From contig CP000066.1 of assembly GCA_000002445.1 (NCBI GenBank), positions 640,001 to 704,000 on the forward strand: DNA of 64,000 bases, given 5' to 3'. The notes beneath the pieces were generated by a model. That model saw only the letters and a list, made by a program, of their open reading frames with translations, did no database searches and was not told the DNA's origin. The stretch comes from Trypanosoma brucei (lineage: Eukaryota). Shown here piece after piece: positions 6,124 through 37,398 of the stretch; position 1 is the first letter of the stretch, and each line of letters opens with the position of its first letter. A program made the position numbers and the translations under genes.

Positions 6124-7031
6124 TAATCTTTTACTAACATAACAATAAAAGCAAAAAAACTTCTTTGCAGAGCAATTAACTCGCTTTCTCTCATGTTTAA
6201 ACATTGTCAAGTTACCTTTTGTTTAATATACAGAGCCAGTTAACCACTCAGAAAACAACCAGTGAGTATAATCAGCGTCCACAATACTTATCCGTATGGG
6301 AAGAAATGAAATATGAAGTTACGTCTTTTAAAATCTTTATCAAAAGCAGCAGCCAAGCGACCGGAGACTCACATTTATCAAGTGCGAGTAGGGGGCATCT
6401 GTGGTTCAATAACATAAAAACACATGCAGTAACAAGTTTTCGCAGATAAATATTATGGAGTACCACCTATATAAGTCCAAGTCCACACAAAAAAAACCCA
6501 AGCAAAAGCAAATACACAGTAAAGAAATAATTACAAACACATTTGATAGCACCGTCTGTTGATAGCAAATACTTAAACAGCGAAGAAGAAAGACGTTCAA
6601 AGCATTACAAAACACATCGTGGAGCAGTTCTGTAGAAACGATTACAAATGGGAAATAACCAACTCCCACGAAACAGTACATCACTGTAGCCAGTCCATCA
6701 AGAAAAATTGGCAGCGTCTCGGCGCGTGATTCAACTCTTTTCGAACGCTAGACAGCATCCACAACACTAAGCAGTTAGGTACAAATATAGATCACTACAT
6801 AGCAAAAGCAAAATGCGGTAAGTACCGCAAAGGGGTCCCCCATCCTTACGCTGTTCTATTATTTATTTCGCTTCTTCCACTTTATTGCAGTCTACAATTA
6901 TAGGCGCTTTCTCCCATCATATATTAAAGCATAATAGCGCGAGAAAGAACAAAAGGTCATAGATTAACGTATCGAGCTAGTGTGAGGGGTGATGCTCTGA
7001 GGCAGTATTTGTATCTAGTTTAGTGACGGAT

Positions 7032-7949
7032 TTATCCGGTGATAAAGCATACAATTGCGACAAGGAGGTTCTGTATCGCTCCATATCTCACGTTGTTTCC
7101 TTTTTTGTTTTCTGGTTTGCGGTCGATTCTTCCTGTGTTTGATACAATTCCTGCACCTGCTGCAACTGTATCATCCCGTCCGCGCACTGGTTCCTCCCTT
7201 CCTGGGTCTGCATCCTGTTTCCCATTGGTCGTCGTGCCATCTTCTGCAGCATCGCGCTGGTGATCATTCACTGTACCTTTTTCTGGTGAAGATTCCCCTC
7301 GAGGGTGAGTATGCTTCCCTCCCTGAGTTGCTCCTCCCTTTTCTGGTTCCTTTCGGGTCAAGCCCTCACCTCCAGCTCCGTCCTTTTTCCCCGAAGCTCC
7401 CCGCTTCTCCCCAGCAGTTCCCCGCTTTTCCCCCGGACTTTGCTGATCTTCCTTTGGAGTTTCCTCACCTTCCCCCGAAGCTTCCTGCTCCTCCCCCTCA
7501 CTTTTGGGAGCACTGCTCGCTGTCTCTTCGTCGTCCGAACCGCTACCCTTAGTTGTGTCTGAGGGTCCCTGTTCAGACGCGGCAGACTGCTCTACCGTCT
7601 CTTCTGTAGGGACCTGTTGTGTTATACTCCGCCAGTCGGAGTCGGAGCATGTTGTGGCATTGAGTGAATCCTCGCTTGAGTCCTCGTCCGTGCAATTAAG
7701 GGTGTGCAGCCGGTGGCCGTTTCCATGAAAAATGGCGTACACTTTGAGCTTCAGCTTGAAATATCCCTGTGGTTGTCCCTTTCCGATCAGAAGCACAGGA
7801 GTGTTTGTGCAGTTGGCAGGGTGCCACTTGCCCTTCCATCTGCACAGCGCCCCTTCCGCTTCATTATGCAGACAGTCACACCTGAAAGTCACTGCTGAAG
7901 ATCCCAAAACTACACAACTTGCTAGAAACAACGCTGTAAATGTCAACAT
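7032..7949 (-). CDS. 305-aa predicted secreted/membrane protein. Signal peptide, Cys motif (FRCDCLHNEAEGALCRWKGKWHPANCTNT), long acidic Gly/Glu/Lys-rich low-complexity region, C-terminal hydrophobic segment LLVAIVCFITG
   Basis: ATG confirmed at 7947-7949. Compositional architecture resembles a surface protein. No recognisable enzymatic motifs. Confidence 0.45.
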   Translation of the reverse strand: MLTFTALFLASCVVLGSSAVTFRCDCLHNEAEGALCRWKGKWHPANCTNTPVLLIGKGQPQGYFKLKLKVYAIFHGNGHRLHTLNCTDEDSSEDSLNATTCSDSDWRSITQQVPTEETVEQSAASEQGPSDTTKGSGSDDEETASSAPKSEGEEQEASGEGEETPKEDQQSPGEKRGTAGEKRGASGKKDGAGGEGLTRKEPEKGGATQGGKHTHPRGESSPEKGTVNDHQRDAAEDGTTTNGKQDADPGREEPVRGRDDTVAAGAGIVSNTGRIDRKPENKKGNNVRYGAIQNLLVAIVCFITG

Positions 7950-15500: not shown

Positions 15501-18500
15501 GAAAGGGCAGGGCAGAAGGGCAAGAATGCGTTCCCACACGTCACCATTGCCATTGCTCTCCATGGAGTGAATCTCATCGAGAATTACGTAATCGATAAGG
15601 TCAACCCATTCAGCGTACTTGGGTGAAAGCAACATGGTTTCAAATGTCTCGGGCACAGTCAGAAGTACTTGGCAGGAATCGTGGAACTGATGGTAGTCGG
15701 CCCCACCAAGAACACCATAAATATATTTACCACTATTTTTGTACTCTTTGGACCCATAGCGAGCGCAGACATCGGCCACCGCTTGATTAATCAACGCACG
15801 GGCGGGAGCAAGGTACACAACAATCCGCCTGTTGGAGCGGCGAAGAGTGTTATACATGCAGTAATACGAAACAAACGTTTTCCCAGCTGAAGTTGGGGCA
15901 CACACTACAGCACTCCCGCGATTGTCCACGATGTCAAGGAGCTCTCGCTGCCAACTGTCTGGGTTGAAGGCAACGCGGTAATCGGGTCTTCGAATGACCG
16001 GCCGCTCAAGCAGGTGTCCCATGTGAATGAGTTGCATCATTTCTGGTGTGTCGGTCAGTTGCCGCATCCGCGGGAGCATCGTTGGCCCTAACAAACTCGG
16101 TGCCTTATTTTGCCACTGAGTGATGGCACGGTCCAGCTTGCTGTAGTAATCTTCCCCAAAGTCCAGGTGCCTCAGAGCGGAGCGTACCGTGTCAAGGTCC
16201 TCTTGCGATATTTGCAGACCCTCGTTTTGGACCACCGACAAGACGTGATGGTGGCAATAAAGAAACAGCGGAATGGCTACCGATAGATCCGGTGTTTCCT
16301 TGGCCAAACGGGCACGCTCCCGCTCACTACGCCAGTTTTCGAGACGAAGTTTAACTACGAAGCATTTGATTTTCATCTGGATGTGCAGTTCCACGTAGGA
16401 CAGATACACCCACCGCAGGTACGACGCAGCTTCCGCGCTTGTTATATCCGACTTGAACTTCCGCAGCCCCTCCAGTTCTCCCCATTCTGTGCTCTTATCA
16501 CTTATGGTGGCGACGAGGTTATCAATGACTGTAAAACCGTATGGCACAGCAGTCTCCGTCTTCAAGCCCTTTTTCTTGACAGCGCGGTTCTTTGCCGAGG
16601 GATCTTCAAGCGTGAGCGCAAACTCCGCCTCACGGAGCCCACTGGAAGCCACAAGCAGGCGCCACATGGAAATCTTTAACGAAATATCGCTACCTTCACT
16701 CTTTCCAATCGTGCGATCGGGCTCGAAACCTTTGGTGAACTTTGCCTCCGCGAGTCGCTTGACTGCAGCCAAAAGTTTCTTCACAGCGTCATCACGATCT
16801 TTGTTGGTCGTACGTCCGTGCGTTGGGTCGATGCTGCGGAGGTGATCGTCCATTTGCTTCAACCAACTCTGAATGCTACTTGCGGCGTCTTTCAAATTCT
16901 TCTGCTCACGAATTTCATCATCCTTGCTACGCCCCTTCTTATTACGCTGTCCCTCGTGCTCATTATTCCCCTTTTTCTTCTTCGCGGCCGCACCCTTACC
17001 ACACCCTCCTGCACCTCCTGATCCAGCGGCGTCAGTGCTTTCTTGCTCATTATCCGAGCAAACCAAAGTTAGTGGTTGGGCGGCGAAACCACTTATTCCC
17101 ATGGACTGCGCCTGCTGGAAGGCGTTACGGACGAACTTCGTCTGAAACTCCTGCGCATGTCTTGCTTCCTTCTCAGTCATGTGAATCTTTGCCTCACGCT
17201 CCCCATCAGCATCAGTAACGTCGTTGAACTTGTCGAAAGGAGTGGTTATATCCCACCCAATAAGCTCATTGGCGGCGCCGTAGCCATCGGGTATCGGCCG
17301 CTTTGCCTTGTGTCCCTCCACCTTGAAGGTTTTGGCCAGGTGCTCTACTAACTCGTGTTTAAGGTACGGATATTCCTGAAGCTGCACAGGTTGAGGCTGA
17401 GCTAGCTCAGGGAGGCTCCTAAACGGTGTCGAGGTAATGTCAAGTGTGTCGTCGTCCATAAGATACTGCCAAGTCATGGAGATGTCCCCTACACCGTCTT
17501 CATCCAACAAATGGCTTGGCGCTTCTTCGCGTAGCAATCGCGCAACGGCGTAGAGGAGATGTCCGTCGATAATGTCGAATACCTGACCGCCTCCGTTGTC
17601 GCAGCCAGCGTGTCGAAGTGCGCTAAGGAGAAATGGTGAGATATCCGCAATAAAGTTTTGGAGCACGGCGCTGGGTAATGCCGCCTGGGCCCTGGCCTCG
17701 CAGCTCAGTATTCCCACAATGTAAGCCGTTATAACAAGGGCCTGACAAAGCTGCTGCTCTTGTTCGCTTCGTTCCTTCATGGTTAGATAGGTGCGTACTG
17801 CCGAACAGACAATCTTCTCACGGAATGTCAGGTCCTCGTTCAGCACGTTCAATGATTTTTGGGACAATGTGGGCAACGTCACTTCACGTTCGAGTGATTG
17901 AGCCAACGCGCGCACCTCCGGCTCGATTCCCAGCGAGCGCTCAAGGGTTGAGCCGTCCACGCCCATGGTGAAGACGATCATAGAGTTCTCCCTGTAGATG
18001 ACACGAGACGAGTACGCGACTTTGAGGCGGCGGGAGGCTGCCCAAAGCAGCAGACATCGAATATACATAGCCGCATCATTTCCTATTTCCTCGTCCTCAA
18101 CGATGCTCCTGTACGGCCGACGTGCAGGCACAGCGACGGCACCGCTGGAGTTGACACCTGAGGATGCATTAGTTGTTTCAACCTCCGGATTGACAAAAAA
18201 CTCTTGCAGCGGGTTCAAGGAACCCAGTTGCTCACCGTCAGACATGAAGATAAACTCCGGCTCCCACTCTTTCAGGTAGGTCTCAAAGGCCTCACTATGG
18301 AAACTTGGAAAGGTACGCACGGTGAAGCGGGAGCCGCCTGGGCACTCGCTCGCGGCTGTCAGTGCCAGTCGTAAGTTTTCCCTCATCAGCATTTTCGCAG
18401 GGGCTCGTTCCCACATCCACAACATACTATCGAAGAAAACAATGTGGAATCGGGCCCCGCGGCACTCCATATCGAAGAGCAGCTTTTGTGCATTGTACAT

Positions 18501-19034
18501 GACATGTAATGGCTGTATGAGGTCCCAGTCTACATTTGGTGGTGAGAGGGCAGACATGAACAAGGAATCACCGTCTATAAAAAACATCTCCGTTGCGGCA
18601 AGATGTGCGAACATGTCACAGAGTTCGGGCCGTGCAGTGGCGTAATGGTGCTCCACCGCCGTACGCAGCAGCTCTTCTTCAATCACAGCTCGCATCTTCC
18701 CATCCTTCTGGACGGCAGCAACAAGGAACTTCCACGCATTGCGTTCCTCTTCCTCGTGCTTCAGGGTGCCGACAATTCCACCGGCTGGTGGCTTCCCTCC
18801 GTTTCGGAACGCGGATAACACGGCGTCACATACGCGACTTAATGCGCTGCGGCGACGTGCAACTTGAGCGATTTTCCCCTCATATGAGGCATCAGCCTCT
18901 TCCTGAATCGGAATGTTTTTGGCTTCGAAAATGGCCTGTAGGGCCCCTACGGTATCCATAGGAATTTTTAAAAAATCATCATCCTTGAGACAGTTACCGA
19001 ACAGCAGGTTAAGATCCCGTTGCTGAGTAGCCAT
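12522..19034 (-). CDS. 2170-aa superfamily-2 DExH-box helicase, Ski2-like / DDX60-like. The helicase core sits in the middle of a very large protein
   Basis: ATG confirmed. Motif I CAPTSAGKTFVSYY, motif II VILDEIHSME, motif III ALSATLG, motif VI QMMGRAGRRGLDHLGH. The helicase-C region (IGMHHAGV...VIFSTETLALGIHSP) matches the Ski2/Mtr4/Brr2/DDX60 pattern. Confidence 0.8.
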   Translation of the reverse strand: MATQQRDLNLLFGNCLKDDDFLKIPMDTVGALQAIFEAKNIPIQEEADASYEGKIAQVARRRSALSRVCDAVLSAFRNGGKPPAGGIVGTLKHEEEERNAWKFLVAAVQKDGKMRAVIEEELLRTAVEHHYATARPELCDMFAHLAATEMFFIDGDSLFMSALSPPNVDWDLIQPLHVMYNAQKLLFDMECRGARFHIVFFDSMLWMWERAPAKMLMRENLRLALTAASECPGGSRFTVRTFPSFHSEAFETYLKEWEPEFIFMSDGEQLGSLNPLQEFFVNPEVETTNASSGVNSSGAVAVPARRPYRSIVEDEEIGNDAAMYIRCLLLWAASRRLKVAYSSRVIYRENSMIVFTMGVDGSTLERSLGIEPEVRALAQSLEREVTLPTLSQKSLNVLNEDLTFREKIVCSAVRTYLTMKERSEQEQQLCQALVITAYIVGILSCEARAQAALPSAVLQNFIADISPFLLSALRHAGCDNGGGQVFDIIDGHLLYAVARLLREEAPSHLLDEDGVGDISMTWQYLMDDDTLDITSTPFRSLPELAQPQPVQLQEYPYLKHELVEHLAKTFKVEGHKAKRPIPDGYGAANELIGWDITTPFDKFNDVTDADGEREAKIHMTEKEARHAQEFQTKFVRNAFQQAQSMGISGFAAQPLTLVCSDNEQESTDAAGSGGAGGCGKGAAAKKKKGNNEHEGQRNKKGRSKDDEIREQKNLKDAASSIQSWLKQMDDHLRSIDPTHGRTTNKDRDDAVKKLLAAVKRLAEAKFTKGFEPDRTIGKSEGSDISLKISMWRLLVASSGLREAEFALTLEDPSAKNRAVKKKGLKTETAVPYGFTVIDNLVATISDKSTEWGELEGLRKFKSDITSAEAASYLRWVYLSYVELHIQMKIKCFVVKLRLENWRSERERARLAKETPDLSVAIPLFLYCHHHVLSVVQNEGLQISQEDLDTVRSALRHLDFGEDYYSKLDRAITQWQNKAPSLLGPTMLPRMRQLTDTPEMMQLIHMGHLLERPVIRRPDYRVAFNPDSWQRELLDIVDNRGSAVVCAPTSAGKTFVSYYCMYNTLRRSNRRIVVYLAPARALINQAVADVCARYGSKEYKNSGKYIYGVLGGADYHQFHDSCQVLLTVPETFETMLLSPKYAEWVDLIDYVILDEIHSMESNGNGDVWERILALLPCPFVALSATLGETQQLCGWLNRVQSRLKEQAVDTPAKARDYRVHVLPSEGQTIQRWNDIKKYIYLPPPDTRTSLKKLTTTYENRYIHDLHPLSILTTDQLQRGFPPDITLVPSEVVSLFGEMRTAFDNIIWPKLSSIPRVQMLQSKLKLLEPGRYFEADLYITQQRARLYEREVKDAFAQWVLLSNSSVKKPDISSDEQVKEFNSTMKHATETILAAFAQKLNEKEAALGSYAVAAMERKRAQQQSRTNTEGRSEQESDEAVPEAAFPGSRQFIREQSLNVLREISARDMGPAIVFSFESEDCEDLVKYVVEQLEEAEERYRQTEEFALYKAKVERAAAEREARHKQRESTLKQKRLRTNEDGEVERAERDVDEGEEDEGEVCEVPDILPEFTFIGAGCSVEPDVVKELIKDCEGEGEDLLLRALKRGIGMHHAGVKGKLRGHVERLFRGRHCGVIFSTETLALGIHSPCRSVVLAGDHILLNPTQFRQMMGRAGRRGLDHLGHLIFLGITMQRIKRLMTSGMTVIKGNVQMDPISQLRLLQLYDYNTHRSLKHEDAWKQHVKKLAERLFVNPLFFQRREAFAQSNMEGFTIEYLQMLLVFLQKQGLHFRDRPSSLGSLLQDVMYVFREAHVGNEGFAFIRMLTSGVFHEAHYPPALDKELHSGVTDEPIAELLAYLFSFHQTCGVPLEIHRSALLDPAVSVVWEGKTNATQHRVVLSPVDVCSPSVRPFDNTEFFALLSAFYNQLASRLDEKKEKEEKGKEQEEEEEEESSEGPRLPYVETGGDQLIFGNGAGDFPLMDALKESAVQFKARHPFVAISGCGDVFTSVDEVVFSLRDDLFCDRRLLPVLDVSDGWRHDGAQVLINACLADFLRVKAQIDTTRKNYRFTMLEELNGLSQSLSYSVLNRAEKLISNLAGLVRKAHLPAASILTAIMPDESFTAQEEGYSAGAPRLLKVAERLNSLQLQIQKRFAEEKYAAKKAKWVSELAAKRNEQK

Positions 19035-19659: not shown

Positions 19660-19790
19660 CACCAAGCAGCAACAAAAAAAAAGACAGGGAGAGAGGAGGA
19701 AGAAAACGAAAAAAACAAAAAGGAAAGGAAAGGAACACGAGAGCCGTGATTCCAAAAGCAAAGTTAATATACACGCTTTTATTTTCTTAG
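19660..19790 (-). promoter_or_regulatory. Sense-strand polypyrimidine tract (purine-rich on the plus strand) between the PGAP1-like and helicase genes. Candidate trans-splicing/polyadenylation signal
   Basis: Plus strand reads aaaaaaaaagacagggagagaggaggaagaaaacgaaaaaaacaaaaaggaaaggaaagg, which is poly(C/T) on the coding strand. Established kinetoplastid mRNA processing uses such tracts. Confidence 0.4.
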
Positions 19791-22234
19791 TTTGAGGTAC
19801 CAGGAGCTAGAAGGGTGCCACCACTACCACCGGACACGAGCGCCGGACCAAGCAAAAAACATGGAAAGGCGTACAGCAGCACCCAAACAATACGAAAAGA
19901 CGCCACTGGAACACTGATCATCCAAACAAGGGGAATCAGCACAAGGAGAATGCACAAATGCGGTGACAGCCGCTGAATCCATGGGCTGGCCAAAGCCTTG
20001 GCCAAAGAAGACAGTTTGTCCCTATGAAGCTGCTCACAAAACCGTTGCTCATGATATAAAGGCCACATCACGTATGAGAGAATAAGCACGAGTAATAGCA
20101 CCTCCACGGCGCGACTGGTGAAGTCCACTACGGTGGCATCGTCAAACGTGGCTGATCGCAGCGCGTTCCTCCACGCGAAGAAGGGATGAAGGTGAATTAA
20201 GTGCAAAAGGGCGTAGGCCGACACTAACATATACGCCTCCTCCCTTCTGCCGTCACTGCTGTCAAAGGTAGCGGTTTGATATGACGCAGAGAGAGGCAGT
20301 AGAACTATAGTGAGACACAACCACACTAGGGCGCGGTCACATATACGCAGCGGTAACAACACACCACACAGAAAAACAACTACACCAAACACAGTGACCG
20401 GTATTATCCGGTTCCACGGCTCATCGCAATTATCATCGCTACGTGTGGGCGACCTGCGAACCCACCGCGGTAGTCTTAGATAGATGCACGCACGATGAGT
20501 AACCAACCAGAATTTCGTCCATCCAAACTTACTTCCCCTCAAAAGCAGCTGAAGCAAGCGATAAGCAATAATACCCATCCATATGCCTTTCAACGCGGGG
20601 CCGGAAGCGGCAAAAGCACACCAAACCAACATGAGAGGATCAAATGTGGGTTTGCACACAAGCGTGTCAGCGATCCAGGGCGACTTACATCCTTCCATTG
20701 CTGGTAGCAGACAACATGGTATCTGCACGAGTAACAAGTGGCCCACAATTCCCATTATCGGGGTAACCATAACAACAGCCGTGTGCGATGACGTGAACAA
20801 TGATTTCCATGACCAATCTGCGCAGCAATGGGACAGCACACGGAGGTTCAGCAGCAGCCGCAGCAGCAGCGGGTGGATCGCGGAGAGGACGAAAGAACCG
20901 TATGAAAACGCCACCAACACGGTAAGGCCGACATGAGTGTAACTCGCCTCCGCCCACCACGAAAAGGCATCTGAAAAGGAGTGCGGCGGAGGTGCTGGAT
21001 CATTGATGCCCTCTGGTAAAGACCAGTTCCGCAACTTAAGGTTCCTTGACTCGGGTGAAATACCATCCCCCCTGACCAGAGAATTTCTAATAACGGCAGA
21101 GGTCCAGAATTCAACAACACAGTAGTCCCTCATTATATCGTCATGAGAAAACGTCTTTCCACACACTTTTGGGTGCTCTGTGGTGACATCAATACACGAC
21201 CCATTGTTGCACCCAATGCTGTCACTGAGGCGCGTGTGTTTAGACTGCACCATCAAGTCTAACGGCCCCGACGTAAGTGAAAGAATGCGGGGATTGCGAT
21301 AGCCGTTGCGGTCATTAGCCAACACATTTTTCTGAACAGGATCCCAAAGTGTTTTGTACAACCTCCACATGGGCAGGTCAAGAAAAACAGGCATCTGACG
21401 GTTTGGACTGTTCAGTGTAATAACTCCGGCAATCAACGGGAAAACCTGTGAGTCTGATAGAGTCGACAGCGCCATTCGTACCACAACGCCACCCATGGAG
21501 TGACCAATGAGCCATATGAAGGGAGGGTTATGCGTCTCGTTTTTTCGGTCTTCATACAAAGTTATTATTGTATCCGCTACAAAATCTGCCTGATGATGCA
21601 GAAGAGCACCGCGATGGGCATTTGCCTGCTCGGAGAAATCAAAGGTGTACAACCTTCCCTTGATTTTTTGCTCCTGCAAAAAAAGAATGCCAAGCCGGTG
21701 GGCCTGCATGTAAGAGCCTGCGTTTCCATGAGCAAAGAATATAATTACCTCCGGCGGCTTTTCCTGCGTCGGTGCGTATGTGCTGTAACAATCAGGACAA
21801 CTGACTTCAAAAAAGGAGTACGGCGGGCTGCTTCCCCTGTTACTCCTCTCGTCACCCCACTTCGGATTCTGCAAGAACAATCTTCGATAACTCAGTGGGT
21901 GCCACGCAACCGAGTCCGGAAACACACGAAATCGGTTGTTGTTGGCGTAGTCCCTGATCTGTAACCCAAGTCGCACGACCGAAAGTGCGTAGAGCAGTGC
22001 AGCAGCCAAAGAAAACAGTGTAAATAGCACAACGAGATTTTTCTTCCTTTGCGGAAGGGATGTCGCAGCCGGATTGACACCTGACGAGGGGGCACCAATT
22101 CCACTTAACTCTTCATCTTCTTGGCTAGGCATATGTTCGTCGCACAAACCTTTGTCGAAGCAGTACCCACTGACAGGTCCGTCCCCTGTATATGCACTGC
22201 AATCATCCTCCCTTTCATCACCACAAAGGCGCAT
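19787..22234 (-). CDS. 815-aa PGAP1/Bst1-like GPI inositol deacylase: alpha/beta-hydrolase lipase domain followed by a multi-pass hydrophobic C-terminal half
   Basis: ATG confirmed. Motifs IIFFAHGNAGSY and the nucleophile elbow GHSMGG. Several predicted TM segments in the C-terminal half. All typical of PGAP1. Confidence 0.7.
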   Translation of the reverse strand: MRLCGDEREDDCSAYTGDGPVSGYCFDKGLCDEHMPSQEDEELSGIGAPSSGVNPAATSLPQRKKNLVVLFTLFSLAAALLYALSVVRLGLQIRDYANNNRFRVFPDSVAWHPLSYRRLFLQNPKWGDERSNRGSSPPYSFFEVSCPDCYSTYAPTQEKPPEVIIFFAHGNAGSYMQAHRLGILFLQEQKIKGRLYTFDFSEQANAHRGALLHHQADFVADTIITLYEDRKNETHNPPFIWLIGHSMGGVVVRMALSTLSDSQVFPLIAGVITLNSPNRQMPVFLDLPMWRLYKTLWDPVQKNVLANDRNGYRNPRILSLTSGPLDLMVQSKHTRLSDSIGCNNGSCIDVTTEHPKVCGKTFSHDDIMRDYCVVEFWTSAVIRNSLVRGDGISPESRNLKLRNWSLPEGINDPAPPPHSFSDAFSWWAEASYTHVGLTVLVAFSYGSFVLSAIHPLLLRLLLNLRVLSHCCADWSWKSLFTSSHTAVVMVTPIMGIVGHLLLVQIPCCLLPAMEGCKSPWIADTLVCKPTFDPLMLVWCAFAASGPALKGIWMGIIAYRLLQLLLRGSKFGWTKFWLVTHRACIYLRLPRWVRRSPTRSDDNCDEPWNRIIPVTVFGVVVFLCGVLLPLRICDRALVWLCLTIVLLPLSASYQTATFDSSDGRREEAYMLVSAYALLHLIHLHPFFAWRNALRSATFDDATVVDFTSRAVEVLLLVLILSYVMWPLYHEQRFCEQLHRDKLSSLAKALASPWIQRLSPHLCILLVLIPLVWMISVPVASFRIVWVLLYAFPCFLLGPALVSGGSGGTLLAPGTSN

Positions 22235-22833: not shown

Positions 22834-25800
22834 TCACTCACGTTTTAGTGGCCACTGAAGGAATTTAACTGCACTCACAAGTTTATTCGATATAATAACG
22901 GAGATATTCACCGACACATCTCTCAGGAGGCATACTACACGCCATGGTTGTGGAGGTCGCGAGACACGCGTATGACTCGCAGCGTCGGCCACAACCGCAC
23001 CTTCAATGCGTGTGCGAAGGCAGAGGCGTAAATGGGAATCTTCCAGCCTCACGCTTGTTCGTTGATGGAGAGCAGGTTGCTCCGACGCGTGCAGCGAGGG
23101 GCGGATAGTTTGACCCGCATTATGGTTCATGAGACTTGGTTCCACTGGACTCTTTACTTCCATCAAACGTGGCGAAGCAAAGCCGCTACTGAAGTTGCGC
23201 AACTCCCCTTCATGATTAGTGCCGCCTTGCAGCCTCACACATCCACTCACCTCGCATCCCCCCGGTGCCTCATAGCAACTGCCGCAGCTACCAAATTGTG
23301 TGGAATGGCCACATTGGACAGCTGCTAAGGTAAACGAACTTATATCTAGTCCTTGTATTGGCCCGGACCTCGAGTGCTTTCCCTCATTTCCATAATCCCA
23401 TGGTTGGTTATCAGCACACCATGGCAAGTCGCTCCACGGGATAGAAGTTGTGGGTGATTGGATTCCGCCATGTGCAGCCGTGGAAGAGGCTATTGCATGC
23501 AACACAGAATTCTTCAGTGTTACTGTGGCATGTCTTGCTACAATGATCTCCTTGTAGATGCAGTAGCCGCTACATCCCGTGAGTGATACCTTGGCACACT
23601 CTGCTTGTAAGGCAGGGCCCCCAACAGCACTTATAAATACACTTCGAGTTGCCTCCAGAGAGCTGTCACTAACAACAAATACAGCCTCCGAGCCGGCAAA
23701 AACACAGCGAGTGGCAGCAACCCTTGAATCCATTGCCACCGAAAGCCGTCGCACACGTACATTCTCCAACACCAATGAAGACCCATCCGTAACATGCAAG
23801 CGTACAGGCAATATTGGGGTGTCTGAATCACTCCGCTTCGTGGGTTTTGGTGCTTGCTGGTCACTTTCTTCATTTAATGGGCACCCACCATTTTGTCTTG
23901 GACCAATATCAATATCAGCTGCGGATGTGCGGTAGCGTACGTCATCACGCGGCACACCCGCCACAGCAGCCGCAGGTCTTCTGGACTCTTCTCGTGATGG
24001 TAACCTCCCGGAGTGAGTGGCTCCCTCTGATGTGCTTCGGTGAAAGAAAAATGTCATATTCTTATTGTGCATTGGGGGAACTACATCAGCAGCCCCGCAC
24101 ACCTCACCCCTGGCCCCGCTATGCAGTACTAATGTGTGCCAAATCACCTTGCTGTGAAGTTGGCCTATTTCTCCAGGCTTAAATGAATCAGTGGCACGGG
24201 GGACATGGCCAGATGAAGTGCCGCGAGACAAACCGGCTTTGTTTGCAAGACATGGTGTTGGAACACATTGCAGCAAGACATTGCGCAGTCGAACATACGC
24301 ATTCGATCCCTTAGCAAAGATGGCAGCCCGCACTGCCGGGCATTTGTGCCCACAATCACATTTGTCTTCTTCCAGGACATTCAACTGTGCAGCTTGCGTT
24401 TCCTGCACTATTACATAACACGAGTTCATGGACAGCTGGCCGCCTTCATAAACACGAATGGGACACCCCACTTGCTCTAATACACCATCTAACTCCAGAG
24501 ACTGCGGCGCCATATCCGCAGCGGCAGCAGCATCACCGTCCAGGTGAAGAACGGTGTTGTCGAGTACACATTTCCCAAAAATTCTCACATTCCCCTGCAG
24601 GACGCTGAAGACATTCTTCACACTGGAAAAACGAGAAAACACCTGTGATGCTGTCACGCGGATAGCTCCGCCATGGGAAACTAACAGCGAGTAATTCCAC
24701 ACATTTTGTGCTAAGCAATCAGATAGATACACGTTCGACCCAACTAGAGCGTTGAAGGCGACGTTGCAAAACTCTGCCTTACACCGATACAGGTACGCGA
24801 CAGCTTCGGCACCACACCTCACCGCAATCGCCGCGCCGCCGCCAAACACTGCATTATGAATAACAGCCGTCCCTTTGTCCATCACAAAACAAGATGGGGG
24901 TTGACCGCAAAGACTAGAGCAAGTGGTTGCGGGTCCCAAAGGGCCTGACAGCCGACATGCTCCAAAGTCTCCGGATACGCTGACCTCTAAGAGGCTATCC
25001 ACCGTCGCGTCAAATCTTGCACCGCAGTTTACGTGGACACCTGAGCGCGAGAATCCGCTAATCTTCACATTGCCCTCAACCTGCACAATGCCGTTTCTGT
25101 TCTCAATACCGCACACCCGCGCCCTGTAACTTCCGTGATGAACAATGCACGTTCCCTGATTGAGCACAAGCACACCAACATGGTTACACTCAGTAGTACA
25201 GTGATTAAGACAACATTTCGCACTATCCACCAGGTAACCGTTGGCAACGTCGGACGCTACACATTGCCAGGCCTCCATCTCCGTATCCGCGTCAAGCGCG
25301 GCGTAACCAAAAGTTACGTGACGAACTTCGCACGCAGTTAACTCACAATGGCTACCTGCCCACGCCTTTACACCTAAACTCCACGTTCCACCGCATAAGC
25401 ACGTGGGGGAAGTCGTGGCGGTCTCATCCAAATCCCTGCAAACGCCGCACCCTCCGTCGACACTTACGGAACTGCAAGTGATGACGGGCGCGTACACCGG
25501 CGATTCAGTCGATTGGGGCTCGCCTGGTAAATCGGGCGGCGCTACGGAAGCTGTACAGCCATGGAACGGGTCATCGCTCATGTCCACCATACACTTTTTG
25601 AGGCATAAATAGCCACCGTTGTGAGAAGTAAAACCGCTCTCAAGACTTCCACGGACGGTAACGCCAACGCATCGAACGTGACTCGACCGGCTATCCAATC
25701 CGCGAATGCGGCACTGAAAAATGCAGGGGATGCCACCCAATATACAGTGTGGTGCGTCCGAGTTGTCTATGCTAAGCTTAGACTGATTAAAGGCGAGCAC

Positions 25801-28683
25801 CCCAACCTGCTCTGCGTATGCCCCACAGGAATATAACCTGCACTCCGCACCATCAAACACAAAACTGTTGGATCGGCACACCCCCACGCATTCCCTGCAA
25901 AGAACAACAGATCCTTGGGAGGCAGTAAACCCAAGAGAGTGATCAGTAACTAAGCAGCGACTCAATGTTGCACTACTGTTCACAATTCTAACCGCGCACG
26001 TTTTACGCGATGCCGGAAGTGTCGACATGACGATCACGTCGGTTAACTCGATAGAACTTTTATCGTAGGCAAATATGGATGTTATCCCGGTGTCCTTCAG
26101 TATCAAACCCCTGGCCACGACAGTTGCCTCGCGTACCTCTAGCCCAAATGCACCTCCTACGAACGACAGCGGCAGTAAGGTCTCCGTGTTCGCTTCCGTT
26201 GCTACACCTTCACAGTCATTGCTATTGTTTGCTTTATTCGCTTTACTTTTGGTGGTGCCACTTCCCCTCCGCTTTTTCGAAAAAGCTCTTCTAATAGAGG
26301 AGACATAATCATTTTCTTGCTCAACTTCATCCACAGCCAACGGCAGGGCAGACTTGTGTACGCCGCGCCAGCCGCGACCCATGTCGTACCGCAGCTCACC
26401 TCCCTCCACAGTAAAAACTGCATTGCTCTCGTTATCCCCCCCAGATCCACAGGTATTCATTAGAGGCAGTCGGTACCAGCCGTTTTCACGACCACGTAGC
26501 GCCAGTAGCGTGCGGCAGCGTTTCTCAAATAGCTCTGGGGGTCCTGCGTCGTTGTTGATTGTGCACTTGGCACCGTTCAAAGCAAATATGCCCACATGAT
26601 TTGTGAAGGCAGAGCTGCTGTCAAATGTTGCACGTGAGGCTTCAACTGTGTATCCGTTAACGACGTGCTCAGCGTGGCAACTGTAGAAGTGTGCCACCGA
26701 GTGTGATATCACTGAAAAACCAAAATAAACGTACTCAGCGAGGCAGTGACGGGCGGTAACCAATCCACCCAGCTCTACACTGAGGCCCGTGGGACGGTTA
26801 CCGTCGGATGCCTCAAAAACGACTTGATCCCCGCCATAAAACCGAGTGCCAGCGAAAAAAGCCCGGCATCCAGCAACGCTCACGGCATTGATGTAGCCAG
26901 CCATGATGTCACAATCAGAGATATCCACAGAAGCATCCTGCTCAGCAAGAATAACCCGCTCACACTCGGACGGTGCAATACTGCATCCGCCACGGGCACA
27001 CAACCGTGCGCTATTTGAAACATGAATAAAAGAATGCAAAACGTTCAGGGAGGCCACTCCCGTAAAACCAGTGTCCTGGCAATCAGCGGAAGGGGGAGCA
27101 TAGCGCTTCATCACGGTCCCATCGCGCAGATCCAACTTCGATTCATCCAATACTAGAATTCCCTCGCGGTAGCCATCCGGCACATCGACGAACAACTTTG
27201 AACGAGAGAAAATCACTTGACCCTGCCCTTCCACCACAATGCTTCCGGTGACAATACAACTATCTACTTCCAGCGTTCCTAATACGGTGATAACGGAGGC
27301 ATACACCTCGAGTTTTTGCAACCGTAACGTACAATCTGGTGGAATTACACACTGCTCGGTGGTGCTTGACCATCTGATGGAGGTGAGGAAAGACTCTACT
27401 CCGCTCCCACCCTCACCACAAAGGACCAGTCGGATGGGGGCACATTCACAGGTTTTGTTCTTGTCGCAGAAGGCACAGTTGATCCCAGTCCCCCCACTCC
27501 CCCCTTCGCCAACGGAGTTGCTTTCTTCTCCAGCTTCTCCTTCACTTGCAGCGCATGTGCAGATCACTGGGGTCACCTCGTCCCTCCCCTCCTCGGCTAA
27601 GCGAGACAAAACTTCATTTTCCATTGTTTCGGCGGCATCCGTCTTGCATTCTCCCGCCCCAGCTGAACTCCCAAAAGCGGGGCTATTGACTGTGGGATTC
27701 GCATTGTTATCTAGCGGTGGATTAAGCATCCCTTCCCTCGCGCACAGCGGCGCAAGCAAAATGTTAAAAGATAAGTTTTCGCGAAGTGCGCCACTGGTGG
27801 ACGGGAGGTTGCAAACGAACATATCATCATCCACAACCGTGTCCTTGGTAGGGTGCTCCGGTGACTGAAACAACGCCCGCCTTCGTGGAGCGTCCAAGAA
27901 AATGTCCATCACCTCAGACGAGAAACGCATCTGCTGCAATTCTCCACATGAACACACCACCTTCTCCCTCCGTGTCGTGCCCGAATCCCCTTCAATCCCG
28001 TCATCACTTGTGATTGCAGAACTGCGCTGCCCCTCATCGTTCGTTACTGCCGTGGCTGCTGCTGATAGCCCCTCCCTTGTTGCAAGTTGGTTTGCCTCGG
28101 GAATTCGCTTTTGTCCAGTAACCTTACTTCTGAAGAGATGCGGGTGGGAGTTTCGAATGTGTTGGATTCCTAAGTCATGCTCCTCAAGAGAGTAGGCGGA
28201 AGCGGCTGACTGCTGTGGCATCCATGCGGCATCGTCGTTTCCTCCATGAGCTCCATTCCCAACCAACCACCGCCGCGACTCATCAACTGTTACTCTGCTG
28301 TCACACCCGAACGGGTTGAGTGTTGTGTAAAGGGAGTGAAACAGCAAACTGAGACCCTCCACATCCACCGTCCACTGCTGAGACATGAGTTCAAAAGAGC
28401 AAATGGCTCCATAATGGATAAACGTCGCAAAGAGACGGGGCGAGACAACAAAAACAAGTGGCATGCGCTGCAGCTCTTCTAAAAAAAGCACTCGCAGGGA
28501 GATGATAAACTCTTTCTTGTTCTCATCCTCGTAGCGCAACTGAACGAACCAGTTGGTCAGGTCATCCTCGTCAAGAAGCTCAACAGCAGTGCAGCAACCC
28601 CCTAATAGCGTGTGAAGGTTCTGCTTAAAATGGGCATAAAGCCGTTGTAGGCGTTGAAGGTACGAAGTGGACAGTTGGAGCAT
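22834..28683 (-). CDS. 1949-aa protein with an N-terminal UBC-fold (E2/UEV-like) domain followed by about 1700 aa of Cys/Gly/Val/Asn-rich parallel beta-helix (PbH1/CASH-like) repeats
   Basis: The track ORF starts at a TTG (28977) that runs through a sense-strand pyrimidine tract. The ATG at 28683 ('cat' at 28681-28683) begins MLQLSTSYLQRLQRLY..., which aligns with the UBC N-helix. The core NWFVQL..FIISLRVLF..MPLVFVVSPRLFATFIHYGAICSFELMSQQW..LSLLFHSLYTTLNP matches the UBC consensus W..i.GP..F.l.i.F...YPf.PP.v.F.t...HPN....G.ICLdiL...W.P. Downstream repeats of the form N..G..V.....F..N.vGI.a.ng...I.NN recur throughout. Confidence 0.55.
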   Translation of the reverse strand: MLQLSTSYLQRLQRLYAHFKQNLHTLLGGCCTAVELLDEDDLTNWFVQLRYEDENKKEFIISLRVLFLEELQRMPLVFVVSPRLFATFIHYGAICSFELMSQQWTVDVEGLSLLFHSLYTTLNPFGCDSRVTVDESRRWLVGNGAHGGNDDAAWMPQQSAASAYSLEEHDLGIQHIRNSHPHLFRSKVTGQKRIPEANQLATREGLSAAATAVTNDEGQRSSAITSDDGIEGDSGTTRREKVVCSCGELQQMRFSSEVMDIFLDAPRRRALFQSPEHPTKDTVVDDDMFVCNLPSTSGALRENLSFNILLAPLCAREGMLNPPLDNNANPTVNSPAFGSSAGAGECKTDAAETMENEVLSRLAEEGRDEVTPVICTCAASEGEAGEESNSVGEGGSGGTGINCAFCDKNKTCECAPIRLVLCGEGGSGVESFLTSIRWSSTTEQCVIPPDCTLRLQKLEVYASVITVLGTLEVDSCIVTGSIVVEGQGQVIFSRSKLFVDVPDGYREGILVLDESKLDLRDGTVMKRYAPPSADCQDTGFTGVASLNVLHSFIHVSNSARLCARGGCSIAPSECERVILAEQDASVDISDCDIMAGYINAVSVAGCRAFFAGTRFYGGDQVVFEASDGNRPTGLSVELGGLVTARHCLAEYVYFGFSVISHSVAHFYSCHAEHVVNGYTVEASRATFDSSSAFTNHVGIFALNGAKCTINNDAGPPELFEKRCRTLLALRGRENGWYRLPLMNTCGSGGDNESNAVFTVEGGELRYDMGRGWRGVHKSALPLAVDEVEQENDYVSSIRRAFSKKRRGSGTTKSKANKANNSNDCEGVATEANTETLLPLSFVGGAFGLEVREATVVARGLILKDTGITSIFAYDKSSIELTDVIVMSTLPASRKTCAVRIVNSSATLSRCLVTDHSLGFTASQGSVVLCRECVGVCRSNSFVFDGAECRLYSCGAYAEQVGVLAFNQSKLSIDNSDAPHCILGGIPCIFQCRIRGLDSRSSHVRCVGVTVRGSLESGFTSHNGGYLCLKKCMVDMSDDPFHGCTASVAPPDLPGEPQSTESPVYAPVITCSSVSVDGGCGVCRDLDETATTSPTCLCGGTWSLGVKAWAGSHCELTACEVRHVTFGYAALDADTEMEAWQCVASDVANGYLVDSAKCCLNHCTTECNHVGVLVLNQGTCIVHHGSYRARVCGIENRNGIVQVEGNVKISGFSRSGVHVNCGARFDATVDSLLEVSVSGDFGACRLSGPLGPATTCSSLCGQPPSCFVMDKGTAVIHNAVFGGGAAIAVRCGAEAVAYLYRCKAEFCNVAFNALVGSNVYLSDCLAQNVWNYSLLVSHGGAIRVTASQVFSRFSSVKNVFSVLQGNVRIFGKCVLDNTVLHLDGDAAAAADMAPQSLELDGVLEQVGCPIRVYEGGQLSMNSCYVIVQETQAAQLNVLEEDKCDCGHKCPAVRAAIFAKGSNAYVRLRNVLLQCVPTPCLANKAGLSRGTSSGHVPRATDSFKPGEIGQLHSKVIWHTLVLHSGARGEVCGAADVVPPMHNKNMTFFFHRSTSEGATHSGRLPSREESRRPAAAVAGVPRDDVRYRTSAADIDIGPRQNGGCPLNEESDQQAPKPTKRSDSDTPILPVRLHVTDGSSLVLENVRVRRLSVAMDSRVAATRCVFAGSEAVFVVSDSSLEATRSVFISAVGGPALQAECAKVSLTGCSGYCIYKEIIVARHATVTLKNSVLHAIASSTAAHGGIQSPTTSIPWSDLPWCADNQPWDYGNEGKHSRSGPIQGLDISSFTLAAVQCGHSTQFGSCGSCYEAPGGCEVSGCVRLQGGTNHEGELRNFSSGFASPRLMEVKSPVEPSLMNHNAGQTIRPSLHASEQPALHQRTSVRLEDSHLRLCLRTRIEGAVVADAASHTRVSRPPQPWRVVCLLRDVSVNISVIISNKLVSAVKFLQWPLKRE

Positions 28684-28740
28684 CTGCTTCTTCCTCCTGT
28701 GCGTCCACCTCACGATCCAACCCTCTTCTAGAGCTATTGG

Positions 28741-28870
28741 AGAGAGAAACGGAGTAGAAGCCCTTATCAAACGGAAGAGACAAAAAACAAAAGACACACA
28801 AGTTGGCGTACGGCACTCGGTAAGTAAAGTTAGCAGAGAGCTAAAACAAAAGTAAGACATAAAAAATAAT
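28741..28870 (-). promoter_or_regulatory. Sense-strand polypyrimidine tract upstream of the UBC/beta-helix gene. Candidate splice-acceptor region
   Basis: Plus strand is AG-rich (ggagagagaaacggagtagaag...aaaaaacaaaagacacacaag). The TTG-extended ORF translates this as FFMSYFCFSSLLTLL, a signature of reading through a pyrimidine tract. Confidence 0.4.
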
Positions 28871-30203
28871 TGCCCTTCCGCTTTCATGAGAAGCAGCCAC
28901 CCCCCTCCTCCCAGCGACGGCTGCCGTTTCCATACGAGAGGGGAAACAGGTGACAACCACTTGAAAGAGAAATGCAAACGATAACAACATCATATACCCA
29001 ACACAAGCAGTCAAAGTGGGCTACGCGGCAAAGTGCTGGCAGCGGAAGCAAAACACACTATGATAATAGGATGACAAAGTGGAAAAAAAACAGAATGACA
29101 AAGATGACGGGTAGCACTACAACAATAATTCTTTTGAGAATCACTACGAGCAGGTCTCGTGGTTTTCCTGTCCCTCTGTGAGAAACGACAACGTAAATCG
29201 AAATAAACAAAAATAAAGGCACAATATTGTAGGAGAAGGGTCTTTTCATCCTGATATCCCCGTTCTTTTTCTTTTTCTTGGTTCGTGAGATACCCGTACG
29301 GGAAACTGAGCAAACACGTCTGCCCTGTTGAAAGGGGGAAAATGGACCACGACATTTCCAAAAATATAAAAGAACACCACTTTGTACTCCCTCTCGCTCC
29401 CCATTGCATAATCATACGAACTCTCTTGCACCACATGGCGCTTGTCTCTAATGCTTATGAAGCTGCTCTTCCCCTTACAGCGCGGCCGCACTCCGCTGCG
29501 CAACGGAAGACACCACGAGAAGAAAACAATAACGCACACCTCAGTCGACCTTCAATTTCCCATGCACTCCACCGCGGTGTGCCAGCCTTCTCGCTTCACT
29601 TTCTCTAGCTGATATTGTTGACGGTAGCCACATCATCTTACATCTACAATGCAAAAGATTCCCGCAGCATCTTCCGGTGCACACGACAACTACGGTACAG
29701 GGCACCTCATGATGGTGAGATGCTATTTTTAAGGCCAAATGTGCTCGATGTCACATAACCTGCGCTTTGAGTCTGCGGGTACACACATTTGTCATTTCCT
29801 CGGCGAAATGTTCATCCGCTACAATGTTAGGCCATTTCCGTCTCTCTTCGGGCACTTGTCTGTGTGCGTACGCGGCGGAGCACATAGTGCATATATGAAT
29901 GTCTATCTGATTGAGGACAGGAGCTTCAGCTCGACAATGGCCACGCGAACTCTTTGGGACTATTGAGTGGAAACATTATGAATGTCAACTGATCGAAAGG
30001 AAATACAAAGAAAAGAACGATTAACGACTACATTGGGTGTACTGCGCGAACGAAACAGTGAGATAACAATATTAAGCGCTTTGTGTCGATGCCCACGAAT
30101 ACCACAAAACGCACCTCTTCCCTCCAAGTGGCATCGATAAGGTAACGAGTCACCCAAAGTCCCACCCAACCCTTCAGATATTGGTGAAAGCCTCCTTCAC
30201 TTC

Positions 30204-35208: not shown

Positions 35209-37398
35209 CTACTCAGAAGGGGTTTCACTTACGCTGTGTCGGTTACTTTTCTTATTTTGCTTGCGTCGCGCCCTCCGCCCCGCAGCAGTGTCCTCCACTA
35301 CCCGCCTCTCATCGTCACCGTCACCGTCTCCATCGCTGACCTTATCAACATCGTCCTTCATGCCAACGTTGGCAACGTTTGACCCATCGTGATGACCTCT
35401 GTGCTGCTTGGGCGCAAAATTCTTGTTCCGGAAGTGCGTAAAGTTCGAGCGATTGTTGGTTTTAACATTCTTTTTGGCCTCTTTTACCTTTCGCTTGCCT
35501 TCACCGTCGTCATCACTGTCACTTCCACAACCGTGCCCAGCAGTCTCGCGCTCCAACAACAGTTGTTCCCGCTCCCGTGCAGCTTCCAACAGAAGTTCGT
35601 CAAGATCACCTCCCGCCTTCCTCCCAATTGGGGCCTCAACTTTGGTGGCCGCCAATCTTGCAGTAGTCCCCGCGATTACGCAGCCACAAGGACAGGAGCA
35701 ATCATCAGCAGCAGTGCCCAACTTGGAGCCGCAACCGCCGCAGCTGACCGTTGCATTCAATCGGTGCACAACAACGCCACTATCTTCAACGCACCACTCG
35801 CCCTCTGCACCATCAACGACCCGAAGAAAGCAAACACTGTCGCACGAACCAACCGCCGGTTGGTGCTTACCCTTCAACGCACTTTTTCTCCCTGCCACTG
35901 CCTGGCGAACATTGAAATGGGCTCGGGCAGCATCTGGGGGGTGCGTAAGAAGAGCGCGTTCATGGAACAGCTTCCGCCTACATTTAAGACACAAGTAATA
36001 TCGCATAGACTCAGGTGAGGATTTCACTGCGTCAGACGATGTCTTAATGGAGGGATCAAAATGCACAGGGGGCTTTGGAGGCTTATCCGCAGCTTTTTCC
36101 CCCACCGCCTCCTCCGTTCTGGCGTCACACGGTTGTTGTGGCGACTGCTTGCCGCTAGGAGAGGACCCGAAAAATACGCGAAGAAAGTTGTCGCGCACGG
36201 TAGCGCAGAATTCCTGGTGCTCTGGTGACTCAGCCAACACATCTTTACTGATGGCGTTGTGCACCGCGAGGGCGACGTACTGATAGTTGGCCGGTTCGTT
36301 GTGCATCGTTCGTAAGTATTCATCAGGGATATTTTGTGGCGTGTTCCACGGTGAACCCGTGCCAATGAGTAACTGGGACAGCGATACGTAGTTGCGCAGG
36401 GAATGAACAAATGATGGTCGATAGATTCCCGGCGCATTACTGCTTGTGACACCTTCAGCAGTCGCTAATACATAAATAGGTGGTGTACCACGACCGATTG
36501 CCCCTGTTGTTGCTTCTGACGGAGCTTTGGGAACATGCTTTCTGACTAGTTCACGCATTGCTGAGGAACAGCTCAACGCGCCAACACCATTGTGAAGGAC
36601 AACAGCGGTGGGATTCTTCCTCGTGGCTCCGTGCTCTTTTCCGCAGCCGCCTTCATCCGCTTGATCCAACATGAGCTCAGCGATCAGCTCAGCAGCCCGG
36701 TCCACAGTGTGATTTCCGTCCGTCAGCATGTTTTCACTGTTTCCGTTCGCACCAATATCCTCGGGTGTTACCACGGCTCCGTCTCGCTCGTCTGGACAAA
36801 GGTGCAACACAATCGGTAACTGAAGTTCACCCGCTTTCCGCCACAGCTCCTTGAGTAACCATTCCTGCGCAAAGTGCGTGCCACTGTCTCGGGTAAGGCT
36901 GAACCCTGATAACAACCCAATTACCTCCTGGTGCCTCGTCCACGCTACAACGCCCTCCATCCATTTTTCCTGCTGCTGCTTGTGGGTACGATCCACACTA
37001 TTCACATGCACACCCACCAAACAGTAGAGTTTGCTGCAACCCTCCTCCCCATCCAACACAGATGCTGCAGCGTTGTGCTGCCTGCACAATTCAATGAGCG
37101 CATCCTGCTGCTCAAAATTACCGCACCACGTGAGCGCAGCTCCAACTCCACCCTCCCTTGCTGCCCTCACCAGCAGTTCGCTGTATCCCGTACCGAACTT
37201 GCGGGAGAGAATGGCAACTGAGGCATCTACATGTTGCACATGATCCCTGAAGGTTGGTGGTACTGGAGCCACACGTGCGAGTGGTTGTTGCTTCACGGAG
37301 GAGGCCTTTCTGGCAGCAGGGGCGCCAGGGTTCTTCTTGGAGTGCCGTAGGCTCGACCCCTTCGCTTCACGACCGCCACCACGGTCGACAAATCCCAT
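35209..37398 (-). CDS. 729-aa protein with a TatD-like (amidohydrolase-fold) domain and a Cys-rich, zinc-finger-like C-terminal half
   Basis: ATG confirmed at 37396-37398. TatD-like landmarks: CLVGVHVNS (cf. GCHP), QLPIVLHLCPDE (cf. LPMFLHCR), IGTGSPWNTP (cf. IETDAPW, with the Asp/Glu metal ligands replaced by Gly). C-terminal clusters CLKCRRKLFHE and CGGCGSK..CSCPCGC. Confidence 0.4.
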   Translation of the reverse strand: MGFVDRGGGREAKGSSLRHSKKNPGAPAARKASSVKQQPLARVAPVPPTFRDHVQHVDASVAILSRKFGTGYSELLVRAAREGGVGAALTWCGNFEQQDALIELCRQHNAAASVLDGEEGCSKLYCLVGVHVNSVDRTHKQQQEKWMEGVVAWTRHQEVIGLLSGFSLTRDSGTHFAQEWLLKELWRKAGELQLPIVLHLCPDERDGAVVTPEDIGANGNSENMLTDGNHTVDRAAELIAELMLDQADEGGCGKEHGATRKNPTAVVLHNGVGALSCSSAMRELVRKHVPKAPSEATTGAIGRGTPPIYVLATAEGVTSSNAPGIYRPSFVHSLRNYVSLSQLLIGTGSPWNTPQNIPDEYLRTMHNEPANYQYVALAVHNAISKDVLAESPEHQEFCATVRDNFLRVFFGSSPSGKQSPQQPCDARTEEAVGEKAADKPPKPPVHFDPSIKTSSDAVKSSPESMRYYLCLKCRRKLFHERALLTHPPDAARAHFNVRQAVAGRKSALKGKHQPAVGSCDSVCFLRVVDGAEGEWCVEDSGVVVHRLNATVSCGGCGSKLGTAADDCSCPCGCVIAGTTARLAATKVEAPIGRKAGGDLDELLLEAAREREQLLLERETAGHGCGSDSDDDGEGKRKVKEAKKNVKTNNRSNFTHFRNKNFAPKQHRGHHDGSNVANVGMKDDVDKVSDGDGDGDDERRVVEDTAAGRRARRKQNKKSNRHSVSETPSE

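Follow-up and report, generated by a model that had tools for sequence, protein, structure and literature searches.

The gene described here occupies positions 22834..28683 on the minus strand of a 64-kb window of Trypanosoma brucei DNA (the whole stretch analysed, 64,000 nucleotides at positions 640,001 to 704,000 of contig CP000066.1, assembly GCA_000002445.1). It encodes a protein of 1949 amino acids plus the stop codon (TGA at 22834-22836), annotated in T. brucei as 'hypothetical protein, conserved'. As judged from profile comparison and structure prediction, the protein opens with a ubiquitin-conjugating (UBC) domain resembling the UBE2Q family of ubiquitin-conjugating enzymes (E2s) and continues with a linker, three right-handed beta-helix modules and a long C-terminal region. 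On the minus strand, the open reading frame (ORF) runs without interruption over 22834..28977. The T. b. gambiense protein P0001, likewise a 'hypothetical protein, conserved', is 99% identical to the 1949-amino-acid protein, and orthologues are present in T. cruzi, T. grayi, T. rangeli, T. conorhini and Leishmania spp., with the database names 'hypothetical', 'uncharacterized' or 'right handed beta helix domain-containing'. The N-termini of the orthologues all start within a few residues of the same 'M..S.LQRLQRL' helix. In addition, a polypyrimidine tract followed by AG dinucleotides, the usual layout of a trans-splice acceptor in trypanosome genes, can be read directly from the sequence upstream of the ATG (28725..28870, minus) and is probably the trans-splice acceptor region. 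Because the orthologue N-termini coincide and this acceptor-like layout of approximately 150 nt lies just upstream, the ATG at 28683 is supported as the true start. The annotation of P0001 (2017 amino acids) begins 68 codons further upstream (28684-28887, minus); since these codons lie inside the polypyrimidine tract and are not conserved as protein in any orthologue, the P0001 start is probably over-extended.

The N-terminal domain comprises residues 1-186 (28126..28683, minus), of which residues 136-162 form an insert that is poorly conserved. Pfam gave no match at E-values up to 1 for the full T. brucei protein or for its first 250 residues, a single-sequence phmmer search of the N-terminus against the PDB found none, and a whole-length family profile also found none in the PDB, its signal being diluted; a signal was obtained only with profiles of the N-terminal region. 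With a profile of 12 orthologue N-termini, the PDB yielded meaningful matches only to UBE2Q1 (E-value 0.008) and UBE2Q2. An exhaustive hidden Markov model (HMM) search of 1.84 billion representative proteins returned 23 proteins, comprising full-length kinetoplastid orthologues, shorter relatives and one protein of 200 amino acids (P0032). The profile of a family alignment of 23 N-termini matched UBE2Q1 at 4.9e-11 and UBE2Q2 at 3.2e-10 in the PDB, with RAD6/UBE2A-type E2s and UBE2C at approximately 3e-7 and five E2 sequences at 1e-5 or below; the bit scores were 43-45 for UBE2Q1 and UBE2Q2 compared to 33 for the next E2s. Furthermore, when the family was aligned by hhalign to an alignment of UBE2Q1, UBE2Q2 and P0032, the match reached 98.6% probability with an E-value of 5.9e-16 over 147 columns that included the C-terminal helix. 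The metagenomic P0032 was the first match outside the family in the search and alone among the search matches in reaching PF00179 (UQ_con, 37.1 bits), and its best PDB matches were UBE2Q1 (3e-17) and then UBE2Q2. It is a stand-alone UBE2Q-type E2 whose motif, SPRLMGGYVFENGAICSEAL, is intermediate between UBE2Q and the trypanosome family, making it a bridging sequence.

The UBC-like domain begins at about residue 5, and the elements of the UBC fold were found: helix alpha1, a four-stranded antiparallel sheet, the active-site loop, and alpha2 with the helices that follow. A reading of the domain as an RWD domain was rejected, given that the profile matches E2s only and that the cysteine at the active-site position is invariant. 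These comparisons collectively indicate that residues 1-186 are a genuine UBC-fold domain, homologous to E2s far beyond chance, and that UBE2Q is its closest family by profile. A preliminary description of this locus, made from the DNA letters, had placed a UBC core over the first 230 residues or so and had called it a non-canonical E2 or a fold like that of ubiquitin E2 variants (UEVs). The domain itself was upheld by the profile and hhalign comparisons and can now be named more sharply as UBE2Q-like, with a span shortened to approximately residues 1-186, variable insert included.

Within the E2-like domain of Leishmania and related genera (P0008-P0012 and P0014-P0017), the loop after residue 70, which joins strand beta3/4 ('SLELVFxED') to 'RMPLVFVV', is enlarged by a low-complexity insertion of approximately 100-250 amino acids (approximately 250 in Leishmania), so that a long disordered loop splits the UBC fold. 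One L. donovani entry (P0013) is without the active-site segment, probably through an assembly or annotation defect.

The catalytic position was examined in the alignments to UBE2Q1, UBE2Q2, UBE2A-type E2s and UBE2C. In all of these, Cys95 (GAICSFEL; 28399..28401, minus) stands opposite the catalytic cysteine, which is Cys351 in UBE2Q1, and it is invariant in 23 of 23 family members, from kinetoplastids (including Bodo saltans) to the diplonemid Sulcionema. It lies within the most conserved motif, PRLxAxFIHHGAxC; P82, R83 and G92 are also invariant in the 23-sequence alignment, and conservation reaches at least 90% at F88, H90 and H180. The His-Pro-Asn (HPN) motif, which marks canonical E2s some 8-10 residues ahead of the cysteine, is absent: when canonical E2s are aligned with the domain, their HPN is paired with F85-A86-T87, and the residue eight positions before the cysteine varies across the family. 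Thus, the retained cysteine and the missing HPN, both pointed out in the preliminary description, were confirmed, and the protein is not a canonical E2 because HPN is lacking. The UBE2Q and UBE2J enzymes are likewise without HPN, and UBE2Q is catalytically active (PMC10971424).

The activity of UBE2Q1 depends on Tyr343, His409 and Trp414 around Cys351 (PMC10971424), and the alignments give a residue opposite each of them in the trypanosome domain. Phe88 (28420..28422, minus; at least 90% conserved) aligns with Tyr343 by both HMMER and hhalign, and the segment His180...Phe184 (28132..28146, minus) falls in the hhalign columns of His409 and Trp414, giving F88/H180/F184 against Y343/H409/W414; two of these three pairings require a one-residue indel in the alignment. 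The C-terminal helix motif reads Y164-x3-E-H-x2-G-x7-H180-P-x-L-F184-R, and the spacing of 16 residues from Tyr164 to His180 is identical to that of the C-terminal 'Y..H' segment of UBE2Q1. Among the UBE2Q1 mutants, Y343F was the sole triad mutant that still discharged, and W414F was among those that failed (PMC10971424). The UBE2Q1 triad is therefore matched partly but not fully, because the counterpart of Trp414 is a phenylalanine and W414F fails.

Other features are shared with the UBE2Q family (UBE2Q1, UBE2Q2 and UBE2QL1), the best sequence and profile match. The catalytic cysteine lies within G-A-[IL]-C-x-E-L in both, the strand 'P-[PL]-V-F-V-x-x-P-x-L' precedes the active site in both, an aromatic residue occupies the Tyr343 position, and the C-terminal helix carries the Tyr/His pair 16 residues apart (H180 corresponding to H409) followed by an aromatic residue. 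In contrast, an RWD-containing extension precedes the UBC domain of UBE2Q1 and UBE2Q2, whereas the trypanosome UBC domain lies at the extreme N-terminus and no RWD match was found by Pfam. The trypanosome triad is F/H/F rather than Y/H/W, the residues before the cysteine are His-His (90-91) in the trypanosome family but Gly-Gly in UBE2Q, with a one-residue deletion in addition, and approximately 1750 more residues, including the three beta-helix modules, follow the trypanosome domain.

Behind the UBC domain comes a linker (residues 187-442; 27358..28125, minus) whose conservation profile is mostly poor, with low complexity, and in which hhalign showed no relation to the beta-helix modules. At approximately residues 241-300 it holds a conserved 'ELQ..F....MD..LD' segment whose sequence pattern is reminiscent of the cap at the N-terminus of beta-helix proteins. 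For the repeat region, an AlphaFold2 (AF2) model was made over residues 440-1500. It showed three all-beta solenoid segments with a predicted local distance difference test (pLDDT) score of approximately 85-97, joined by low-confidence linkers, and nothing confident after residue 1336. Module 1 (residues 443-729; 26497..27357, minus) was modelled at pLDDT ~90 with regular short strands, and module 2 (residues 839-1037; 25573..26169, minus) and module 3 (residues 1100-1335; 24679..25386, minus) were also modelled confidently. Module 1 is the most conserved part of the whole protein, with 75% identity across orthologues over residues 651-700. When the model was compared with the PDB by Foldseek, every one of the best 50 matches listed was a right-handed parallel beta-helix; they included phage tail proteins, AlgE4, AlgG (4NK6/4OZZ), capsule lyases and pertactin, all at fold level only, with 7-12% identity and a best E-value of 5e-5.

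The beta-helix assignment was also reached from sequence families. PF13229 matched T. brucei residues 578-711 at 26.7 bits, over the cut-off of 25.9, when the fragment 430-745 was scanned alone; the fragment 835-1055, which contains module 2, gave 16.3 bits (E-value 0.008), under that cut-off, and neither PF13229 nor any other Pfam family matched when the full-length T. brucei protein was scanned. In the orthologues PF13229 scored 42-56 bits, and in distant relatives up to 127 bits. Local hhalign comparison among the three modules indicated mutual homology (98%, E-values of approximately 1e-13 to 1e-15), a core of approximately 75 residues was common to all three when copies from several species were aligned, and five of nine module copies matched PF13229 singly. 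The preliminary description had proposed about 1700 residues of beta-helix and had looked to PF13229 and structure prediction for support. The fold is borne out by PF13229, AF2 and Foldseek; its extent is reduced to three modules of approximately 722 amino acids in total, 37% of the protein.

The C-terminal region (residues 1336-1949; 22837..24678, minus) had no Pfam match in T. brucei or in five orthologues, AF2 confidence was low over 1336-1500, and a comparison of the C-terminal third with the modules by hhalign found nothing. The module HMM gave weak hints at residues 1651-1741 (23461-23733; independent E-values 0.002-0.03), where a degenerate fourth module is possible. The last ~90 residues of the protein are moderately conserved.

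We also checked the phylogenetic distribution, as the preliminary description had suggested, and it extends over trypanosomatids, free-living kinetoplastids and one diplonemid. The N-terminal E2-like domain is followed by PF13229 or NosD matches in 11 of 13 distant relatives. The named ones are the kinetoplastids Bodo saltans, Papus ankaliazontas and Apiculatamorpha spiralis and the diplonemid Sulcionema specki; the remaining distant relatives are metagenomic. The Pfam matches of some relatives are to NosD and to a pectate-lyase-like family. Because the fusion is shared by Bodo, other free-living kinetoplastids and a diplonemid, the sequences indicate an old conserved architecture within Euglenozoa rather than a peculiarity of T. 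brucei or an error of assembly. The architecture had been called unfamiliar, and we found no earlier account of it: literature searches on UBE2Q and trypanosomes, on right-handed beta-helix proteins and T. brucei, and on CASH and E2 turned up no description of an E2-beta-helix fusion, Burroughs et al. 2008 (E2 fold) not being covered. In a survey of Leishmania ubiquitination genes based on InterPro/Pfam UBC searches, 13 E2s of 16-49 kDa were listed (PMC7647121). The Leishmania orthologue is approximately 280-300 kDa, so the protein lies outside that inventory.

Two kinds of ubiquitin-system proteins can be compared with this architecture. UBE2O and BIRC6 (BRUCE/Apollon) are very large single chains in which a canonical, C-terminal UBC domain is joined to substrate-binding domains, and they ubiquitylate without a separate ubiquitin ligase (E3). 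The trypanosome protein resembles them as a large chain with a UBC domain and, by this analogy, might share their E3-independence; it differs in having its UBC domain at the N-terminus, in having beta-helix modules where they have none, and in showing no homology to them outside the UBC domain. FBXO11 contains three CASH beta-helix domains that were modelled on AlgG 4NK6/4OZZ (PMC8825234). The likeness to FBXO11/FBXO10 is one of fold type, with three right-handed beta-helix modules of the PF13229/CASH type in a ubiquitin-system protein, and the FBXO11 templates are among the Foldseek matches listed for the trypanosome modules; the analogy drawn in the preliminary description is apt, since FBXO11 too has three such modules. 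However, FBXO11 reaches an E2 via F-box/SKP1/CUL1/RBX1, whereas the trypanosome protein joins its E2-like domain to the beta-helix within one chain. Pfam detected neither an F-box nor a Zf-UBR domain in the T. brucei protein, and no F-box in the orthologues.

Taking these comparisons together, we consider it rather probable that the protein is a giant, active, non-canonical E2, a single-chain hybrid of E2 and substrate receptor. A thioester of ubiquitin, or possibly of another ubiquitin-like protein, would be formed on Cys95 by a ubiquitin-activating enzyme (E1). The beta-helix solenoid would be a built-in platform for substrate binding, in the manner of the three CASH modules of FBXO11, and ubiquitin would be transferred to the bound substrates without a separate E3, as in UBE2O and BIRC6. 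These steps are suggested by the E3-free activity of UBE2Q1 in vitro and by the CASH precedents of FBXO11. Several observations weigh against the proposal. Pfam PF00179, one of the families named for checking in the preliminary description, did not match the domain at E-values up to 1 in T. brucei, in the orthologues or in the distant relatives, so that the domain lies under the detection limit of UQ_con. An AF2 model of the UBC domain has its lowest confidence at the active-site segment (residues 81-100, pLDDT 56-65) and at the C-terminal helix, so the proximity of His180 to Cys95 is putative. Phe88 is probably the equivalent of Tyr343, with a one-residue indel between its position and the cysteine. 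Trp414 is replaced by Phe184, the very substitution with which UBE2Q1 failed to discharge, and T. brucei has a tyrosine at position 91 where nearly all relatives have His91. A profile of the modules alone found nothing significant in the PDB, leaving the modules with no sequence-level relative among solved structures, and the substrate-receptor role of the beta-helix is proposed by analogy only. In addition, residues 1336-1949, one third of the protein, are outside the domain explanation.

The first alternative is that the UBC-like domain is non-catalytic, like UEV1/Mms2, TSG101, AKTIP/FTS or RWD domains, and serves as a docking module for ubiquitin, a charged E2 or another partner on a beta-helix scaffold. 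The missing HPN, the failure of Pfam UQ_con to see the domain and the phenylalanine at the Trp414 position would all fit such a pseudo-E2. However, the known pseudo-E2s have, to our knowledge, lost the catalytic cysteine, and this alternative is disfavoured because here the cysteine is invariant, from kinetoplastids to the diplonemid and in the most conserved motif. Moreover, the sequence profile matches catalytic E2s only, RWD and UEV entries being absent from its matches; UBE2Q, the closest family, is active although it too lacks HPN; and conservation extends to His180, which corresponds to the essential His409. Because of the invariant cysteine, an active E2 is more likely on this alignment than a UEV-type pseudo-E2, and we regard the pseudo-E2 as possible but unlikely.

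If the protein is an active E2 of the UBE2Q type, the acceptor may be unusual. In vitro, UBE2Q1 ubiquitylates without an E3 and prefers hydroxyl nucleophiles (Ser/Thr and sugars) (PMC10971424). Because UBE2Q1, which lacks HPN, has this preference and acts E3-free in vitro, non-lysine chemistry is a reasonable expectation for the trypanosome protein by analogy. A stronger form of this idea is that the protein would be a self-contained machine for non-lysine ubiquitylation in the euglenozoan cytosol, with glycans, glycoconjugates or other molecules that carry hydroxyl groups as its targets. It pairs the UBE2Q analogy with a fold of the CASH type, a class of beta-helix domains named for carbohydrate binding, and we consider it distinctly improbable as a whole.

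The roles could also be reversed, with the beta-helix as the working part that acts on carbohydrates or binds them (as a lyase, an epimerase or a lectin-like domain; cf. AlgG/AlgE4, tailspikes and NosD-type proteins), and the E2-like domain regulating or localising it. Among the best 50 Foldseek matches listed, the nearest are polysaccharide epimerases, lyases and tailspikes, the relatives match the NosD and pectate-lyase-like families, and conservation across the whole protein peaks within module 1, at residues 651-700 (75% identity). The fold and repeat type are indeed those of generic beta-helix proteins (PF13229 and PF05048 NosD; AlgG/AlgE4, phage tailspikes and pertactin), but these are mostly secreted or extracellular, bacterial or phage proteins that act on polysaccharides, whereas the trypanosome protein is eukaryotic, has no signal peptide and opens directly with a cytosolic-type E2 domain. 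Its matches to them are at fold level only (7-12% identity, E-values no better than 5e-5), with no catalytic motif recognised. Furthermore, the cytosolic CASH modules of FBXO11 belong to the substrate receptor of a ubiquitin ligase, and the strict conservation of the E2 active-site motif speaks against an accessory role for the E2 domain. We hold this explanation to be improbable. Lowest of all we rate conjugation of another ubiquitin-like protein (NEDD8-, UFM1-, URM1- or ATG-type, or lineage-specific), a variant of the active-E2 proposal rather than a contradiction of it: the modifier is not fixed by the sequence data, and UFC1, ATG3 and ATG10 are divergent HPN-less E2s for such proteins, but their families are not among the sequence-profile matches, and ubiquitin is the modifier used by the best sequence relatives, UBE2Q1/UBE2Q2 followed by RAD6/UBE2A and UBE2C.

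At the level of sequence, the protein represents a new E2 subfamily and a new domain architecture. If the active-E2 proposal holds, a giant E2-type enzyme that was overlooked by the InterPro/Pfam-based inventory would be added to the trypanosomatid set, and the few single-chain E2 hybrids on record (UBE2O and BIRC6) would be joined by one of completely different design, with an N-terminal UBE2Q-like domain and three beta-helix modules. The protein is conserved in T. brucei, T. cruzi and Leishmania, and trypanosomatid ubiquitin enzymes are being pursued as targets for drugs and proteolysis-targeting chimaeras (PROTACs). An evolutionary survey described UBE2Q as essentially metazoan/fungal and a late addition (PMC11354881); in contrast to that late origin, an HPN-less UBE2Q-like lineage is now placed in Euglenozoa. 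The combination of non-lysine UBE2Q chemistry with a fold of the carbohydrate-binding type would offer a lead into non-canonical ubiquitylation in protists. If the protein were indeed the self-contained non-lysine machine, it would be a dedicated E3-free sugar/ester ubiquitin ligase outside animals and fungi, and the UBE2Q-type lineage would be much older than the 'metazoan/fungal' origin proposed (PMC11354881).

The 64-kb window has a GC content of approximately 50% and carries its big ORFs nearly all on the minus strand; it is a T. brucei polycistronic transcription unit. On the minus strand, the neighbours of the E2/beta-helix gene include a 2170-amino-acid helicase-like protein (12522-19034), an 815-amino-acid multi-pass membrane protein with a PGAP1-like alpha/beta-hydrolase domain, resembling inositol deacylases of glycosylphosphatidylinositol (GPI) (19787-22234), a 729-amino-acid TatD-related protein with a long C-terminal extension (35209-37398), and a 554-amino-acid ORF with leucine-rich repeats and a C-terminal ubiquitin-like domain (PF14560; 39159-40823). 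The last of these resembles tubulin-folding cofactor E-like proteins and is apparently unconnected to the E2/beta-helix gene. Because trypanosome polycistronic units put unrelated genes together, this neighbourhood (PGAP1-like, TatD-like, cofactor E-like and large helicase genes) was rejected as functional evidence.

At the low-numbered end of the window, a 218-amino-acid ORF is present in three tandem copies (907-4591, minus) with a period of 1514 bp and 99.6-99.7% identity. A fourth, diverged copy shares the C-terminal ~130 amino acids and is followed by another small surface-protein-like ORF (5449-6210 and 7032-7949). Pfam found no match in the tandem 218-amino-acid ORFs or in these further ORFs. 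The 218-amino-acid copies each begin with a stretch like a signal peptide, continue through a Cys-rich domain and a middle part rich in Ser, Glu and Pro, and end in a hydrophobic tail like a GPI signal, and from these sequence features the cluster looks like an array of small surface-protein genes.

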